64,000 nt of DNA, taken from positions 957,932-1,021,931 of the forward strand of contig CP060227.1 of the NCBI GenBank assembly GCA_023898525.1, read 5' to 3'. Shown piece after piece: positions 10,188-50,600 of this stretch; the first letter of the stretch is position 1, and every line of letters begins with the position of its first letter. The stretch comes from Candidatus Nomurabacteria bacterium (lineage in GTDB: Bacteria; Patescibacteriota; Minisyncoccia; Phycocordibacterales; UBA918). The position numbers were made by a program, and so were the translations under genes. The notes beneath the pieces were generated by a model, which worked only from the letters and a program-made list of their open reading frames with translations, did no database searches and was not told where the DNA came from.

Positions 10188-10290
10188 TTATTACAATTTT
10201 TAGTAAATAAAGTAACCGAGGAACGACCTTTCTGTTGTCGCTCGGGCTCCTCTTTAAGGTCGCACCTTCGTTATTTTAATGTATAATTAA
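10184..10290 (+). mobile_element. Degenerate copy of MITE-1 (carries the internal repeat ...CTCCTCTTTAAGGTCGCACCTTCGTTATTTT)
   Basis: The 10213-10279 core aligns to 49298-49358 and to the reverse complement of 36820-36890. The left TIR is degenerate (gtgcttttaattatt). Confidence 0.35.
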
Positions 10291-15329: not shown

Positions 15330-15455
15330 GAAAGCAATGCTAAACCAATGTTCTTATTTATAGTTATTCTATAATAGCTATAAATAAACAAATAATCCAC
15401 AATCCACCAATTTAATGTATTGGAATGCGCATGGGGGAAGGATTGATCCTGACAG

Positions 15456-15590
15456 TCACCAATGTATTTTGTTCCAAGTATTCACAAAATACACAGTGCC
15501 GCGATAAAATAATGTCCAAACATTATTTTATCGCCTCGTTCGTGACAAAGTCACATCACTTCGACGCATACATTAGAAAACACTTCAAAC
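15456..15590. repeat. Element-family relative E (GTCACC start, hairpin GTATTTTG / TTCCAAGTATTCA / CAAAATAC, second perfect hairpin 15501-15534)
   Basis: Its loop matches the conserved loops at 2227, 4019 and 2021. It lies directly upstream of copy D. Confidence 0.5.
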
Positions 15591-15599
15591 AAGGATTTG

Positions 15600-15706
15600 G
15601 TCACTCTCGTGGATATTTTGCTCGCAAGCTCCAAAATATCACACTCCATTGACCTCCACTCGTCGCTACAATTTTTCGTACCTCAAAATTGGCTTCGCAG
15701 CGACTC
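15600..15706. repeat. GGTCAC-family structured element copy D (107 nt)
   Basis: Starts GTCACTCTCGTGGATATTTT. Hairpin-1 stem GATATTTT/AAAATATC. Left flank ggatttg (tRNA-Tyr T-arm half). Right flank ggttcaaatccctcccggcgc (inverted tRNA-Tyr 3' end). Confidence 0.7.
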
Positions 15707-15732
15707 GGTTCAAATCCCTCCCGGCGCTACAA

Positions 15733-15760
15733 ACGACAACAGCCAAAAAGTAACTACTTT
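15733..15760 (-). terminator. Terminator hairpin downstream of tRNA-Tyr (minus sense)
   Basis: agccaaaaagta-ac-tactttttggct, a perfect 12-bp stem, followed by TTGTCGTTTGT in minus sense. Confidence 0.55.
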
Positions 15761-15776
15761 TTGGCTGGTCATTTTG

Positions 15777-15860
15777 TGCGCCGGGAGGGATTTGAACCCC
15801 CGTAGGGCGAAGCCCGTCAGATTTACAGTCTGATGCAATTGACCACTCTGCCACCGACGC
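15777..15860 (-). tRNA. tRNA-Tyr(GTA), type II
   Basis: Manual fold: acceptor GCGTCGG/CCGGCGC, anticodon stem TCAGA/TCTGA, loop CTGTAAA, long variable arm, T-arm GGGGG-TTCAAAT-CCCTC. Confidence 0.85.
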
Positions 15861-16141
15861 ATATTTATAATTTTGTAAGAACGCTTAGTTTCTACTATGC
15901 GTTCGACCTTATTTCCTCCTTTGGTCTTGCTCGTCAAAGCTTCGCAATGACTCACATCGACCAATCTGCTCGCATTCGCTCGCAGACCAGATGAAAAGTG
16001 AAACTGTTCACTTTTCATCTGGTCTGCCACCGACGCATATGTATTTGTGTACCGTAAGTATTCTTAGAGACACGTAGGCTATAAATTACCACAACCTGTG
16101 CGTTTTTAAAAGGGCTGGCTAATGGTACCATATAAAATAAC

Positions 16142-17973: not shown

Positions 17974-18319
17974 TGGTTCACGTAATTTGTTTAACGTTGC
18001 GGTCACAGGTCACTAAGCTTGCTCCAAATATTCGCAATTTACTAAGTATCTTTGATTCGTAAAGCAGTGTCTAAACGCTGTTTTACCAGCTGTCGTATCT
18101 GCTTCGCTCGGTGCGACATGCTTCCGGCTCACGCTCCAGCATAAAAGTGATGAAGAGTACTCGGCGGTCACGAGTTACTAATTATTTTATTTCGTTACAC
18201 TCATAAAATAATAAGTACTCGCGACCCCGGCTCAGCTGTTTTTATTTCTGGAAAGGGAAATAAAAACATGCTTCCGCCTCCCGCTCGAGCACGAAAGTGA
18301 CGCAGGTCACTTTCTAAAG

Positions 18320-18352
18320 AAAAAGTACAATGCTGTTGCATTGTACTTTTTC
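18320..18352 (+). terminator. Intrinsic terminator
   Basis: aaaaagtacaatgc-tgtt-gcattgtactttttc, a perfect 14-bp stem followed by TTTTTCTTT. Confidence 0.65.
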
Positions 18353-18361
18353 TTTACTCGC

Positions 18362-18380
18362 GCGGGCCCACGAGGACTCG
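18362..18380 (-). other. Partial copy (19 nt) of the tRNA-Trp 3' end through mid T-loop
   Basis: gcgggcccacgaggactcg is identical to 18542-18560 of the intact gene. Confidence 0.7.
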
Positions 18381-18478
18381 GTCACTCTCATGGCTATTTG
18401 TTTCGTCTATATAACTCACAAATAGCTCATTCGTTCGACCCTGGCTTGTCGGCCCAAAGGGCCCCGACTTCGCCTTTC
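18381..18478. repeat. GGTCAC-family structured element copy C (divergent)
   Basis: GTCACTCTCATGGCTATTTGTTTCGTC... Hairpin-1 stem GCTATTTGT/ACAAATAGC carries two compensatory base-pair changes relative to copies A and B. Followed by the inverted T-arm fragment ggtcctcgtgg. Confidence 0.7.
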
Positions 18479-18542
18479 GGGTCCTCGTGGATCCTCGCTC
18501 GCAAAACAAAAGTAACCCTATTCGGGTTACTTTTGTTGCTCG

Positions 18543-25643: not shown

Positions 25644-26561
25644 ATGCATCAGCATCTTAATCAATCAGACCGTGCTTGTATAGCCGCTCTTTTAAGAAAA
25701 GAATATTCATACAGTGCTATAGCTAGGGTACTTGAAGTACACCCAAGCACTATTAGTCGCGAAGTGAGAAGGAATAGCAGCGGAAGCTATAGAGTCCATC
25801 ACGCACAGCGCTGTGCGAGATTGAGACGAGCAAACGCTCGGACAATGTATCGCACCATAGACACTAATGTGGTGCTAGAGCAGCACATCATCGATGGACT
25901 CAAACAAGATTGGTCGCCAGACCAAATAGTGGTGCGTTGCGGTGTTTCATCAGTGAGTTCAATCTATCGGTATTTAGAAAGACAGCCACACCTCAAGCAG
26001 TACCTGAGACGCGGTGGCAGACGCAGGCGAAAGTACGGTACCAAACGCATACCAAGCAGGTATCAAGCCAATAAACGTTCAATTCATGAGCGACCACCGA
26101 TACAGAGTATCGGTCATTGGGAGGGTGATACCGTGCTCGGGAGTGAACGGAAGCTACGTATTGTGACGTACGTGGACAAAGTCAGTGGCTATTTGATTGC
26201 CGCAAAGACTTCAGGTGGTGCCGACGCGATACATGCGCAAGCTAGAAAACAGTTTAGACATATGCCGTGCAACTCAATCACTTATGATAATGGAACCGAG
26301 TTTGCCTTGCATCAGATGATTGAGCGAGACTGCAATACCAAAGTGTATTTCGCCGACCCAGGAGCACCACATCAACGTGGTGCAAATGAGAACTGCAATG
26401 GACTCTTGCGGCAGTATTTCCCGAAAGGCACATCGTTTGCTACGATAACTAACAGCGACGTGCAGCGTGCCGTTCGAAGACTAAACAACCGACCGCGCAA
26501 ACGTCTCAACTATTTAACACCACGGGAATTCTTAGAAAAAGAAGGTGTGCATCTCAGGTGA
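25644..26561 (+). CDS. IS30-family transposase (copy 1)
   Basis: N-terminal HTH and DDE triad context (HWEGDTV, DNGTEF, ...E). 305 aa. Terminal inverted repeats not resolved. Confidence 0.85.
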   Translation: MHQHLNQSDRACIAALLRKEYSYSAIARVLEVHPSTISREVRRNSSGSYRVHHAQRCARLRRANARTMYRTIDTNVVLEQHIIDGLKQDWSPDQIVVRCGVSSVSSIYRYLERQPHLKQYLRRGGRRRRKYGTKRIPSRYQANKRSIHERPPIQSIGHWEGDTVLGSERKLRIVTYVDKVSGYLIAAKTSGGADAIHAQARKQFRHMPCNSITYDNGTEFALHQMIERDCNTKVYFADPGAPHQRGANENCNGLLRQYFPKGTSFATITNSDVQRAVRRLNNRPRKRLNYLTPREFLEKEGVHLR

Positions 26562-35740: not shown

Positions 35741-36764
35741 CACCCTAATTGCACAATCCTTTGCACCCTAATTGCACAGGTCAAGATGACATACATACTG
35801 CTTTTGTATGTCACACAAACAAATAGGACCGGAAGACTGGCCGGTTATTTCACGTATGCTCAAAGCGGGATACTCAGGAGTGGAGATTGCGCACATTATC
35901 AACAAAGATCCAAGTGCGGTTAATAGACATATTAAAGCGTATGGTGGTCGGGATAGATACGATGCTCGCGAGGTTCGCAGAAAGAAAAAACAGGCACGTA
36001 TCATTGCTATGGAAGGTACTAGAATACTCAAAGGAGTATTATTACGAGAAGTGAAACGATTATTAAAACAACACTACTCACCGGAACAGATAGTCGGAGT
36101 ACGTGATGACATCTCTGCGAGCACTATCTACCGATACATTAACGAACGAGCTCCACACCTTAAACAATTTCTTCGTTCTCAGAAAGGCAAGTATCGGCGC
36201 AAACGAGGCACCAAAATACGTGAAAAAGTTCGTGAAAGAGCCAAGAAACGTCGTATTGATGAACGACCGCCCATTATTGAACGTCGCTCCCGTTTGGGAG
36301 ATTGGGAGGGAGATACTATGCTGGGAAGAGACAAACGAGTACGTATTGTCACCTTCGTTGATCGCAGAAGCGGGTATCTAATTGCGTATCTTCTGCCAAA
36401 ATTAAATGCTACTTTACTCACTAAACTGGCGGTGGAAAAATTCAGGCGTATACCCAAAAACAAACGAAAGACCGCTACCTTTGATAACGGTACCGAGTTC
36501 AGTGACTGGGAACGGTTTGAGAAACAAACGAGTATGACTGTGTACTTTGCTTATCCATACCACTCTTGGGAGCGTGGTACCAATGAAAATACTAACGGGC
36601 TACTTCGACAATATTTTCCGAAAGACTTGGATTTCAACACCATTACTCCACAAGAACTTTCTGAAGCGGTTCGTCGTATAAATCATCGTCCTAGAAAGAG
36701 ACATAATTTCAAGTCTCCACATCAGATATTTTGGAAGTGATGGTCTGTGCAATTAGGGTGGTGA
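35741..36764 (+). mobile_element. IS30-family insertion sequence (copy 2) with identifiable inverted repeats
   Basis: The left IR caccctaattgcaca (duplicated in tandem at 35741 and 35763) pairs with the right IR tgtgcaattagggtg (36749-36763). The transposase ORF lies between them. Confidence 0.65.
35808..36740 (+). CDS. IS30-family transposase (copy 2, distinct sequence from copy 1)
   Basis: DDE context DWEGDTM, DNGTEF and a C-terminal E. 310 aa. Confidence 0.85.
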   Translation: MSHKQIGPEDWPVISRMLKAGYSGVEIAHIINKDPSAVNRHIKAYGGRDRYDAREVRRKKKQARIIAMEGTRILKGVLLREVKRLLKQHYSPEQIVGVRDDISASTIYRYINERAPHLKQFLRSQKGKYRRKRGTKIREKVRERAKKRRIDERPPIIERRSRLGDWEGDTMLGRDKRVRIVTFVDRRSGYLIAYLLPKLNATLLTKLAVEKFRRIPKNKRKTATFDNGTEFSDWERFEKQTSMTVYFAYPYHSWERGTNENTNGLLRQYFPKDLDFNTITPQELSEAVRRINHRPRKRHNFKSPHQIFWK

Positions 36765-36776
36765 TTCAAGAGTGTA

Positions 36777-36908
36777 TTGGTAACTAGACTAATTAAAATC
36801 AAGTAAAATAAGGGAATAACGGAGGTGCTACCTTAAAGAGGAGCGATGAGCGACGGGGAAAGGTTGTTCCTCGGTTATTTTCTATACAAATTAATTAGCA
36901 CAGGTGCC
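36777..36908 (-). mobile_element. MITE-1 copy (inverted orientation) immediately after the IS30 copy-2 right end
   Basis: Right TIR aattaattagcacaggtgcc. The internal sequence is the reverse complement of the 49298-49358 core. The left TIR is degenerate (ggtaactagactaattaaaa). Confidence 0.45.
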
Positions 36909-42089: not shown

Positions 42090-42512
42090 ATGGCAACAAA
42101 CAAGAAGGGGGGTAATAAAGATAACGGACTAGGAGTGGCAGTAGGACTGGGAGCGGTGGCAGCGGCTGTCGGGGCGTACTTTATGTATGGTAGTAAAAAA
42201 GCGGCTAAGAACCGCAAGGCGGTAAAGAGTTGGATGTTCAAAGCAAAAGCAGATGTTTTGGAAGCGCTTGAGAATACGCAAGACATGACCAAGAAAGAGT
42301 ACGAAAAATTAATTGATACCGTTGGTACTTCATATGCCAATATTCAGAGTGCCACTAAAACAGATTTGGCTGGTTTTAAAAAAGAAATGAAAGAACACTG
42401 GCTTGAAATTGCTAAGACAGCAGCACCAAAGAAAGCTCCGGCTAAGAAAAAGCCAGCTAAAAAAGCAGCACCAAAGAAAGCTCCAGCTAAAAAAGCAGCT
42501 AAGAAGGAATAA
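42090..42512 (+). CDS. Lys/Ala-rich histone H1-like protein (AKKAAPKK repeats) with a hydrophobic N-terminus
   Basis: C-terminal KAP-type repeats. A terminator follows at 42526-42560. Confidence 0.45.
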   Translation: MATNKKGGNKDNGLGVAVGLGAVAAAVGAYFMYGSKKAAKNRKAVKSWMFKAKADVLEALENTQDMTKKEYEKLIDTVGTSYANIQSATKTDLAGFKKEMKEHWLEIAKTAAPKKAPAKKKPAKKAAPKKAPAKKAAKKE

Positions 42513-45930: not shown

Positions 45931-46005
45931 TGCCGGATCGTTTGGTAGTAGGACTCCGTAAAACAGTCTCCCAGACTGTTTTACCTAGTACTGTCTATCG
46001 GTTTT
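45931..46005 (+). pseudogene. Degenerate tRNA-Gln-like copy in which hairpin H replaces the anticodon arm
   Basis: tgccggatcgtttggtagtaggac + CCGTAAAACAGTCTCCCAGACTGTTTTACCTAGT + actgtctatcggttttgattgg. The T-arm is degenerate. Confidence 0.55.
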
Positions 46006-46055
46006 GATTGGTTGAAATAAACCATGAGCAAATAATAAATCACAACAAACAACAT

Positions 46056-46075
46056 TGCCGGATCGTCTAATGGTA
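46056..46075 (+). other. 5'-half fragment (20 nt) of tRNA-Gln
   Basis: tgccggatcgtctaatggta is identical to 46141-46160. Confidence 0.7.
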
Positions 46076-46103
46076 TGTGAACATACAAACTGCGTTCGTA
46101 CGG

Positions 46104-46244
46104 AAACAAAAGAGGTATTTTAAATATTCATGTCTATCGCTGCCGGATCGTCTAATGGTAGGACTACGGTTTCTGGTACCGTCTATCGGGGTTCGAGTCC
46201 CTGTCCGGCAGCGATGGTCGGGAATTAAAATACCTCTTTTGTTT
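46104..46244. repeat. Perfect 20-bp inverted repeats bracketing the intact tRNA-Gln
   Basis: aaacaaaagaggtattttaa (46104-46123) and ttaaaatacctcttttgttt (46225-46244). Confidence 0.8.
46141..46211 (+). tRNA. tRNA-Gln(CTG)
   Basis: Manual fold: acceptor TGCCGGA/TCCGGCA, anticodon stem ACGGT/ACCGT, loop TTCTGGT, T-arm CGGGG-TTCGAGT-CCCTG. Confidence 0.8.
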
Positions 46245-46270
46245 TTCTCACTCACATTGTTTGTTGTTTT

Positions 46271-46342
46271 AGGACTCCGTAAAACAGTCTCCCAGACTTT
46301 TACCTAGTACCGTCTATCGGGGTTCGAGTCCCTGTCCGGCAG
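46271..46342 (+). pseudogene. 3' portion of a tRNA-Gln-like gene carrying hairpin H followed by an exact copy of the tRNA-Gln 3' 34 nt
   Basis: aggac + hairpin H (46279-46303) + accgtctatcggggttcgagtccctgtccggcag, identical to 46178-46211. Confidence 0.6.
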
Positions 46343-46429
46343 CAAATGTAAAAAGAATAGCTTCTACCTTATTTTTGGAAGTTTTTATATGGTCTATGTA
46401 CAAAATTATTGTGATAAACTGATATTGCT

Positions 46430-48199: not shown

Positions 48200-48325
48200 C
48201 CTAGGCTGGACCTCGTGGTAAATACTTGGTTTGTGAGGATTACGGAGCGATAAGGATTGTTGATGTTGGGGTTTGAGGGTGTTTGGCGAAAATGGTGGCT
48301 GAACCTGTTTCTGTGACCCCATTAC
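48200..48325 (+). repeat. Intergenic repeat B copy 1
   Basis: ...GGTTTGTGAGGATTACGGAGCGATAAGGATTGTTGATGTTGGGGTTTGAGGGTGTTTGGCGAAAATGGTGGCTGA... preceded by a half-palindrome cctaggctggacctcg. Confidence 0.65.
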
Positions 48326-49149: not shown

Positions 49150-49256
49150 CGAGGTCCATCCTAGGGGTTCCCCCAGGATGGACCTCGGGGTCTGTAAGGA
49201 TAATGGAGCGATAAGGATTGTTGGTGCTGGGGTTTGAGGGTGGGTGATGTAGCCGT
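49150..49256 (+). repeat. Intergenic repeat B copy 2 (3' part replaced by a MITE insertion)
   Basis: Perfect palindrome cgaggtccatcctagggg-ttc-ccccaggatggacctcgg followed by GGAGCGATAAGGATTGTTGGTGCTGGGGTTTGAGGGTG. Confidence 0.65.
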
Positions 49257-49389
49257 GGTACCTGTGCTAATTAATTTCTTTAGAAAATAACTGAGGAACC
49301 ACCTTTTCCCGTTGCTCTCACCACTCCTCTTTAAGGTCGCACCTCCGTTATTTTCTTTATTTTACTTGATTTTAATTAGCACAGGTGCC
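49257..49389 (+). mobile_element. MITE-1 (133 bp) with 18-bp terminal inverted repeats GGTACCTGTGCTAATTAA / TTAATTAGCACAGGTGCC
   Basis: Perfect TIRs. The internal core 49298-49358 is shared with 10213-10279 and with 36820-36890 (inverted). Inserted into repeat B copy 2. Confidence 0.6.
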
Positions 49390-50461: not shown

Positions 50462-50600
50462 TCCCGAGGGTAACCCTCGGGATAGGTTTGGTTTGTGAAG
50501 AAGGTGGAGCGATAAGGATTGTTGATGCTGGGGTTTGAGGGTGGTTGGTGAAAATGGTGGCTGACCCCATTTACTCATTTACTCATTTACTCATTTACTG
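50462..50600 (+). repeat. Intergenic repeat B copy 3 plus CATTTACT tandem repeats (x4)
   Basis: Palindrome cccgagggt-aa-ccctcggg then ...GGAGCGATAAGGATTGTTGATGCTGGGGTTTGAGGGTGGTTGGTGAAAATGGTGGCTGACCCC, followed by catttactcatttactcatttact. Confidence 0.65.

Follow-up and report, generated by a model that had tools for sequence, protein, structure and literature searches.

The tRNA-Tyr gene of a Candidatus Nomurabacteria genome (candidate phyla radiation, CPR; Paceibacterota) is followed on its 3' side by a small structured element that has copies of the 3' end of this same tRNA on both flanks, and related elements stand behind other genes in this and other genomes. Coordinates are positions in the window, by which we mean the whole 64-kb stretch of DNA that was analysed; relatives were read as loci of 8 kb and carry L-numbers. 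The genes of the window are ordinary chromosomal ones (ClpB, IF-2, MiaA, ParB, TopA and type IV secretion pilins among them), and eight tRNA genes are present. The intact tRNA-Tyr(GTA), in which CCA is not encoded, lies on the minus strand at 15776-15860 (ARAGORN; Rfam tRNA model, 60.1 bits). Read along the plus strand from 15593 to 15860, the locus consists of a 7-nt T-arm copy, the element, a copy of the tRNA-Tyr 3' end in inverted orientation, a terminator hairpin and tRNA-Tyr.

The element proper, of the type that we call E, occupies 108 nt of the minus strand (15599-15706) and reads GAGUCGCUGCGAAGCC...GAGAGUGACC in the sense of the tRNA. It contains two hairpins, P2 and P1, arranged in a three-way junction with a closing helix, P0, whose strands come from the flanks. 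The gene-proximal strand of P0 is B' (15707-15737, minus strand), an inverted copy of nt 53-73 of tRNA-Tyr plus trailer, complementary to the tRNA 3' end: 15707-15727 is the reverse complement of 15778-15798 in 21 of 21 positions (blastn within the window, E=1.8e-6), and the inverted repeat as a whole spans 31 nt at 87% (15707-15737 versus 15768-15798). The distal strand is B'' (15593-15599, minus strand; sense CAAAUCC), a 7-nt direct copy of the T-loop/T-stem that appears on the plus strand as ggatttg, identical to 15788-15794, and is the whole remnant of the displaced tRNA-Tyr 3' end at this locus. Between B' and the tRNA stands a bidirectional terminator-like hairpin with a 12-bp stem (15740-15767; both strands score as terminator-like), which forms the centre of an extended palindrome made by the tRNA-Tyr 3' end and its inverted copy. 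Protein coding was discarded for the region, where the sole open reading frames (ORFs; e.g. 15710-16030) overlap the tRNA and are mechanical.

Elements of this kind, ~105-150 nt long, constitute one superfamily with homologous ends (sense 5'-GAGRCG...GUGAC-3') and two types. In type E the tRNA copy is joined in the T-loop (tRNA positions 55-57); in type F it is joined at the acceptor end (positions 71-73), and a third hairpin, P3, is often present. The Tyr-like layout also occurs at tRNA-Cys, tRNA-Trp, tRNA-Leu(UAA) and tRNA-Leu(UAG) of the window. A degenerate 26-nt pattern of the element start, GGTCACNCTCRTGGMTATTTDKYTCG, has four matches in the window (3786, 4351, 15599 and 18380) versus none expected from shuffles, and a more diverged fifth copy begins at 2148. 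All these copies are on the minus strand. The E-type copy at tRNA-Trp (18380-18476; inverted repeat I9) has the tRNA-Trp 3' end on either side, as a long antisense and a long sense copy (18344-18380 and 18478-18514), and an F-type copy (18163-18318; profile score 89 bits) is distal in the same array. The E-type copy at tRNA-Cys (4351-4469; inverted repeat I3, 39-nt arms, 92%) adjoins a 79-nt near-perfect palindrome (4461-4539) that includes the tRNA-Cys 3' end. The copy at tRNA-Leu(UAA) (3786-3904; repeat families D2, D6 and D9) is again of type E, and that at tRNA-Leu(UAG) (2148-2262) is a diverged one of E/F type. In plus-strand coordinates each of the five lies 3' of a minus-strand tRNA, with an antisense T-arm copy on its left and a sense T-loop copy on its right. 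The flank that corresponds to B'' matches the local tRNA at 5/5 loci, with one substitution at Leu(UAA), and the T-loop variants of the five loci (CGATT, CAATT, CAAGT, CAAAT and CGAGT) are echoed in both flanks. A first-pass annotation of the sequence had described the Tyr arrangement (a T-arm half, a GGTCAC element, an inverted copy, a hairpin and the intact tRNA) and its recurrence at five tRNA genes; every one of these parts is present and the recurrence stands.

The family extends well beyond the window. When the conserved core of the 18166-18318 copy was scanned against one genome per GTDB species, the F pattern was found at 56 genome loci, ~48 of them in Patescibacteria (Kaiser-, Nomura-, Zambryski- and Campbellbacteria), and the loci outside this group are consistent with chance or mis-binning. 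The E pattern, defined on the subfamily of the Tyr copy, was present in 23 metagenome contigs, and ~100 additional copies were collected across Patescibacteria genomes and metagenomes. At least 15 different tRNA species carry an element, as does the protein gene rplE. Rfam 15 covariance models (gathering scores; E up to 5) gave no match on 15456-15740, and across the window returned only tRNAs and chance-level microRNA or small RNA hits; the only ones that overlap another copy stay well short of their thresholds (SurA, 21 of 100 bits; CsrC, 20.8 of 61; isrK, 20 of 50), a search of 12 related loci gave 0 matches, and full-text literature searches returned no description of such an element. The family is widespread in Paceibacterota, specific to that lineage and apparently undescribed, and the alignments give a well-supported covariance model that is missing from Rfam.

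The three-way junction is supported by covariation in both types. In the F alignment (27 sequences) 35 pairs were defined, 97.3% of the cells are paired, and 24 pairs show compensatory double changes; the covariation score was 0.520 versus 0.200 after shuffling (0 of 500 shuffles reached it) and at most 0.072 with slid partners. The E alignment (A3; the Tyr copy and 16 metagenome sequences) has 34 pairs, with 95.8% of cells paired and a covariation of 0.315 versus 0.123 (0 of 500). The internal loops are conserved and purine-rich, and invariant stretches such as AAAUAUCCACGAGAGUGACC are common to E copies that belong to different tRNAs and come from unrelated metagenomes; such strong sequence conservation implies that some trans-acting factor recognises the fold, which may additionally serve the host in cis.

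Stability and wobble pairs distinguish the two strands. The strand in the sense of the tRNA folds more stably in 50/50 copies and has the lower z-score in 41/50; among window copies it folds better in 6/7, including the Tyr copy, with -34.0 kcal/mol on the minus strand versus -25.9 on the plus strand. Likewise, sense-strand G.U pairs outnumber A.C pairs 18 to 5 in type F and ~38 to 5 in type E, where for example pair 81:134 is GU in 10 sequences and AU in 7, and pair 12:73 is GU in 16. The stability of the sense strand and its excess of G.U indicate that at this locus it is the minus strand that functions, whether in the form of RNA or of single-stranded DNA. Compensatory changes with G.U tolerated on one strand only are the general signature of structured RNA, and single-stranded DNA fits them equally.

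Position and orientation are close to fixed: with few exceptions a copy is found immediately behind a gene and its terminator hairpin, on the sense strand of that gene, which is mostly a tRNA gene and at times rplE. Profile searches gave 78 hits in 52 Patescibacteria loci, 53 of them with a tRNA gene within 500 nt, and 49 of these 53 lie downstream of the tRNA and on its strand; one is on the opposite strand between convergent tRNAs and three are nominally upstream, inside tRNA clusters. The other 25 hits have no tRNA within 500 nt, many of them being at contig ends. The distance from element to tRNA end clusters at 38-41 nt in copies lacking P3 and at 63-82 nt in those with it. In six Paceibacterota genomes (L009, L041, L044, L045, L058 and L023) an F element stands behind rplE (ribosomal protein L5), where the variable 10-mer of the element matches the last codons of rplE, and the copy in L059 stands behind another protein gene. 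The target is therefore the 3' end of the upstream gene beside a terminator, not tRNAs as such.

The flanks of the elements are copied from that target. On the sense strand the unit can be written as the gene ending in B, the terminator hairpin, B' (complement of B), P2, P1 and B'' (direct repeat of B), so that B' has two pairing options, either B, which lengthens the terminator stem, or B'', which gives P0. In F copies, the 10 nt past CCGYCTC (plus strand) equal the tRNA's last 3-6 nt together with its trailer; the reverse complement of this 10-mer agrees at 9-10 of 10 positions with sequence ~74-80 nt away that abuts the tRNA body, and at nine tRNA-Trp loci from different genomes each copy matches its own distinct trailer. 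All E copies aligned (17/17) have target-derived flanks, both bearing the T-loop variant of the local tRNA. B'' measures 7 nt at its shortest and at least 62 nt at its longest, and can cover T-arm, acceptor, trailer and terminator; L083 has a perfect 62-nt direct repeat, and in L083 and L010 direct repeats reach 62-95 nt. At Tyr and Cys, B and B' still make a perfect palindrome all along the acceptor stem; elsewhere the acceptor portion of B' has been scrambled, and its T-loop and trailer portions still match. The duplication of the target keeps the tRNA intact and pushes an old 3' end downstream. Arrays grow by repeated events, and within them the tRNA-proximal copy has the best-matching flanks. 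Side and strand in 49/53 hits, the fixed spacing and the 17/17 target-derived flanks support the claim of the first-pass annotation that a specific mechanism rather than chance is at work. It had also placed the element on the 3' side of the tRNA, correctly, although the fold lies on the tRNA-sense (minus) strand and not on the plus strand on which it had been described. Copies away from tRNA genes, which according to the annotation should lack target-like flanks if its proposal were wrong, do exist, and their flanks are copied from the neighbouring gene.

Arrays are well represented in the window, with at least 10 units behind five tRNA genes, in arrays of 100-450 nt that contain no ORF. Beyond the Tyr copy lies an older, degenerate F-like element with three hairpins (15456-15590, minus strand; repeat family D10), at 15463-15493 (with a TCCAAGTATTC loop), 15501-15534 and 15542-15554, whose sense strand folds at -50 kcal/mol (z = -3.1) and which the F profile search left undetected. 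The same loop motif is found at 2014-2040 and 4012-4038, in two other tRNA loci of the window (family D10). The unit had been described as a second, more divergent relative that carries this loop; the loop hairpin is indeed there, but the unit is a degenerate F-type relative and not a close copy of 15600-15706. It is accompanied by a displaced tRNA 3'-end fragment comprising T-loop, T-stem and acceptor strand (15426-15449, minus strand; sense GGAUCAAUCCUUCCCCCAUGCGCA) that is not from tRNA-Tyr and has no match among the sequences compared; a foreign tRNA 3' end beside an old unit suggests a donor flank that was carried along. On the 5' side of tRNA-Tyr there is a third unit of similar style (15905-16040, minus strand; inverted repeat I14, 27-nt arms, 93%), with a hairpin at 15983-16026 (~20-bp stem) and an E-like body with P1 at 15923-15962; its end (16024-16040) repeats 15848-15864, that is, the leader and first 13 nt of tRNA-Tyr. 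At Leu(UAA) a second, D-type unit (3986-4050) is found, with displaced tRNA-Leu 3' ends at 3766-3786 and 3964-3985, and another D-type unit (1988-2052) is present at Leu(UAG).

Gain and loss were assessed by comparing orthologous loci at the level of related genomes. The ortholog L003 (MiaA 73% identical) has tRNA-Tyr, tRNA-Trp and tRNA-Leu(CAA) with plain terminators and no profile hit, and it also lacks the 15905-16040 unit; L004 (MiaA 71% identical) has arrays with different members. In L039 the Cys-Leu(UAA)-Lys-Leu(UAG) cluster is compact, with spacers of 32 nt and 1 nt and no element at Cys or Leu(UAA). Elements have lengthened the corresponding cluster of the window, where tRNA-Lys still directly adjoins the ancestral tRNA-Leu 3' end, CTCGGCACA (3684-3692); this shows that successive insertions displaced older 3' ends. 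The Leu(UAA) and Cys copies share 97.5% identity over 3786-3904 (blastn) and 96% over 127 nt, with flanks that are unrelated and locally derived. In L010, L043, L051 and L061 tandem units are 100% identical to each other, and identical copies stand at contig ends in two metagenome-assembled genomes (MAGs). Empty orthologous sites (L003 and L039) are thus found together with near-identical copies at non-homologous sites, the general mark of a mobile element.

We therefore read the family as a non-autonomous, structured mobile element whose insertion duplicates its target and leaves the tRNA intact, with a probability of roughly 0.5. We infer the mode of insertion, as well as any role in the host, from the arrangement of the sequences. 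Direct and inverted target copies that flank a compact fold are best explained by copy-choice synthesis, although we hold the specific chemistry only tentatively, at well under even odds. The element encodes no enzyme and would spread by template switching, carried either on tRNA read-through transcripts or on single-stranded DNA of the same strand. The growing strand would jump to an element template at T-loop or terminator microhomology and copy the element; synthesis would then cross the junction of the element's own fold (fold-back) or turn at the terminator hairpin, so that P0 and the extended terminator palindrome would be written from target sequence. On rejoining the target, it would duplicate the segment between the switch points and leave the tRNA intact. 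The copied template would be the gene or its primary transcript, since no copy carries a non-templated CCA and trailer and terminator are included; an origin from mature tRNA by retrotransposition was rejected for this reason. Head-on replication conflict was also discarded as a driver, the GC skew in the sense of the element being negative in 28 loci and positive in 21. Four insertion models (an integrase with a circular intermediate, target-primed reverse transcription with target-site duplication, terminator fold-back, and insertion at the base of a cruciform) each explain some copies, and none explains type F.

Several observations weigh against this interpretation. Copy-choice fits the E copies well, but simple fold-back accounts poorly for type F, in which the target 10-mer sits between the conserved P2 and P3. 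The G.U excess fits single-stranded DNA of the sense strand equally, RNA and DNA being inseparable on this point. Since the terminator hairpin that precedes the element has a good T-tract, transcription of the element from the tRNA promoter is uncertain and would need read-through. No donor or intermediate was seen, whether free, circular or in the form of RNA, nor was a trans-acting enzyme: clustering of 544 ORFs from ~75 loci revealed no recombinase, reverse transcriptase or nuclease recurrent near the copies, the recurrent neighbours being only housekeeping ones (pilins, MiaA, ParB, PolA and ribosomal proteins). Patescibacteria have been reported to be without group II introns (bioRxiv 10.1101/2025.07.03.662931), which removes the obvious source of reverse transcriptase. 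A Pfam scan of window ORFs, which was not exhaustive, gave no reverse transcriptase and no TnpB, and the only transposase-type proteins were two with an rve domain (DDE integrase core; 25644-26561 and 35808-36740), for which no link to the tRNA elements was found. These are probably insertion sequence transposases, and the HTH_38 domain also present in 25644-26561 suggests an IS30-like one. Finally, the tRNAs for Trp, Lys and Val are occupied repeatedly across many genera. At tRNA-Trp the window and L004, whose MiaA proteins share only 71% identity, have F copies that are ~97% identical, which exceeds the conservation of the tRNA, with the adjacent terminator hairpin and E copy diverged; such a preserved copy suggests long-term purifying selection and a host function rather than a decaying parasite.

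These last two points also speak for the main rival, a host-functional, cis-acting RNA module that would extend the primary transcript of the tRNA or mRNA at its 3' end, which we regard as a real possibility, at about one chance in four. B' would pair with the end and trailer of the upstream RNA, and the resulting stalk around the terminator would serve processing or stability; the junction with its G.A-rich internal loops would bind a protein, and copy number would reflect the need of each gene and not mobility. The Trp F copy is preserved over deep divergence, the structure lies on the sense strand at a fixed distance from the tRNA end, and B' follows the local trailer in every genome, with a sense-strand G.U wobble in the pairing of L043. 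The module is nevertheless dispensable, as L003 has none at three tRNAs and L039 none at Cys and Leu(UAA), and even in loci chosen for containing an element only 45/81 tRNAs carry one. Different copies stacked behind a single tRNA, each with its displaced 3' end, are not required by such a function; older E copies have the acceptor part of B' scrambled; and near-identical copies at different tRNAs, together with the identical tandem units, denote recent duplication.

Mobility by another route, as a single-stranded DNA recombination cassette resembling integron attC or CTX-phage attP, seems rather unlikely to us. A host Xer-like tyrosine recombinase or an HUH enzyme would join the folded element to a tRNA 3' end acting like attI, and promoter-proximal insertion, cassette arrays and occasional cargo genes would be expected. 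The strand-specific fold tolerates G.T and not A.C, as would suit such a substrate, and the arrays are uniformly oriented with the best-matched unit adjoining the tRNA, some of them with identical tandem units. The attC repeats of the Vibrio cholerae integron, of ~125 nt, resemble the element in size and conservation, and larger, ORF-bearing inserts occur at the same junctions (L014; window 2407-3606). Against it, no integron-type integrase or recombinase recurs near the copies, integron core sites are conserved whereas here both arms of P0 change with the target, and duplications of up to 62-95 nt with an inverted target copy are unlike the known products of site-specific recombination.

As for those larger inserts, the one in L014 (7260-7870) is GC-rich, ~0.7 kb long, with an ORF of up to 127 aa, and is enclosed by two F units behind tRNA-Trp; its junction falls at the same acceptor-end position, and it looks like a cargo-carrying version of the cassette. 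The window insert (2407-3606; 1.2 kb), between tRNA-Lys(CUU) and tRNA-Leu(UAG), has three sense-strand ORFs, whose products are a membrane peptide of 48 aa and two proteins of 171 and 129 aa, the 171-aa one with an HExxH motif (TIAHELGHM). The same tRNA-Lys-Leu interval holds an F element alone in L039 (171 nt) and an F element with other sequence in L043 (440 nt).

We give little credit to the idea that attL/attR sites were left as scars when an integrase inserted and excised islands or prophages at tRNA genes, the copies being remnants of the ends of those larger elements. Integrative elements are typically recognised by a directly repeated 3' segment of the tRNA together with a tRNA that has been regenerated; such repeats are present here on either side of the insert (family D9 and other loci), although at Tyr only 7 nt remain, and so is the 1.2-kb ORF-bearing insert behind tRNA-Lys. 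An integrase is normally specific for one tRNA, and here one covarying structure of ~110 nt stands behind at least 15 tRNA species and rplE; no integrase gene was found in or beside the arrays and no recombinase family recurs in the ~75 loci, and the inverted copy and the fixed junctions (55-57 or 71-73) would be left unexplained. Least probable of all, with hardly any weight in our view, is an independent small RNA gene on the plus strand, convergent with the tRNA and sharing a bidirectional terminator, to which the hairpin with a T-rich tail after the copy and the protein genes that end just upstream on that strand at several loci would lend themselves, but whose fold would be the weaker one in 50/50 copies, with conserved positions turned into A.C mismatches and promoter-like sites upstream of 15599 at chance level (2 found versus 1.7 expected in the region).

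If the element is mobile, as we favour, its mode of insertion would duplicate the target both directly and in inverted form, without ever breaking an essential tRNA, and it would explain the clutter of tRNA fragments and the assembly breaks at copies in some MAGs. Genomes of CPR/Patescibacteria are highly streamlined, at ~1 Mb. If instead it is functional, an abundant and conserved RNA fold would sit on tRNA 3' ends in a major uncultured radiation. A bolder version, which we consider improbable though worth stating (somewhere near one chance in five), is that of a new kind of mobile element based on RNA, or of a guide RNA for an unknown enzyme, free of protein genes and self-retargeting through a closing helix and a gene-proximal arm that would be written from the target at each insertion; it would home to the conserved T-loop or acceptor end of tRNA genes while not inactivating them.

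Other repeats were noticed in the course of the analysis. The tRNA-Gln(CUG) locus (window 45931-46343) is rearranged in a different manner: a 5' fragment (46056-46075) and a 3' part (46270-46343), in which a 12-bp hairpin, GTAAAACAGTCTCCCAGACTTTTAC, replaces the anticodon arm, bracket an intact tRNA-Gln that is itself within 18-nt inverted repeats; a similar hairpin occurs at 4268-4291 and a further pseudo-copy at 45931-46000. Upstream of tRNA-Lys(CUU), L010 (1592-1911) contains several ~95-nt repeats with a tRNA-Lys 5' fragment (CCGCCCATAGGTGTCTTGG...), a 5'-side tRNA-fragment array in a region that includes an assembly gap. A repeat of ~75-120 nt with the core AAAATAACGGAGGTGCGACCTTAAAGAGGAG is found in both orientations (10200-10277, 36789-36908 and 49257-49379), and one copy adjoins the rve-domain ORF at 35808-36740. 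G-rich repeats of 85 nt (48226-48310, 49187-49271 and 50488-50572) precede each of three neighbouring genes, one of which encodes a Band_7/SPFH protein, and may be a shared leader. A 15-nt tandem repeat (42411-42509) gives the 140-aa ORF at 42090-42512 a Lys/Ala-rich tail of AKKAAPKK type, which looks like histone H1.

Among known systems, islands and prophages that integrate at tRNAs share with the element the duplication of a 3' segment, the intact tRNA with a displaced fragment, the building of arrays by successive events, and the T-loop region, which is often their crossover site. The element differs from them in its units of ~110-150 nt, the absence of an integrase, the range of targets (many tRNAs and rplE), duplications of 7 to >60 nt and the extra inverted copy. 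With miniature inverted-repeat transposable elements (MITEs), REP/BIME/REPIN sequences, Neisseria Correia elements and Rickettsia palindromic elements (RPEs) it has in common that it is short, multi-copy, non-coding, hairpin-rich, often terminator-adjacent and lineage-specific. Those elements have their own fixed terminal repeats and short, fixed target duplications, whereas both flanks are here copied from the target, and the strand-specific three-way junction, the RNA-type covariation and the strict position and orientation also set the element apart. A MITE proper was rejected, as the flanking inverted repeats vary per copy, match the local tRNA T-loop and are not owned by the element, and the direct repeats, from 7 nt (Tyr) to 62-95 nt (L083 and L010), are not target-site duplications of fixed length.

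Patescibacteria harbour group I introns inside genes for tRNAs, where they interrupt the anticodon loop at position 35/36 (Nakagawa et al., bioRxiv 10.1101/2025.07.03.662931). The element resembles them in phylum, target class and structure with a guide-like segment complementary to the flank, and differs in that the tRNA is uninterrupted, the size is about half that of a minimal group I intron and the group I catalytic core, which those introns have, gives no Rfam match here. A group I intron was accordingly dismissed, with an intact tRNA, no RF00028 match and only two hairpins plus P0 in place of a P3-P9 core. An omega RNA or guide scaffold of IS200/IS605-TnpB type was also considered, and TnpB, IscB and Tas were found neither among the window ORFs scanned, a non-exhaustive set, nor among the recurrent neighbours; TIGR arrays were ruled out by their unit size, the lack of an effector and the position. 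Compared with integron attC sites and cassette arrays, the element has no IntI and no conserved R/L core boxes, and its paired arms are copied from the target; like them, it is a strand-specific structure in their size range (~60-140 nt), uniformly oriented at a promoter-proximal site, with an optional ORF. From group II introns it differs in the lack of group II domains and reverse transcriptase, in its ~110 nt and in the duplication of the target. Those of class C (IIC) reportedly insert just past intrinsic terminator hairpins, and with them the element shares its place directly downstream of such a hairpin, in the orientation of the upstream gene.

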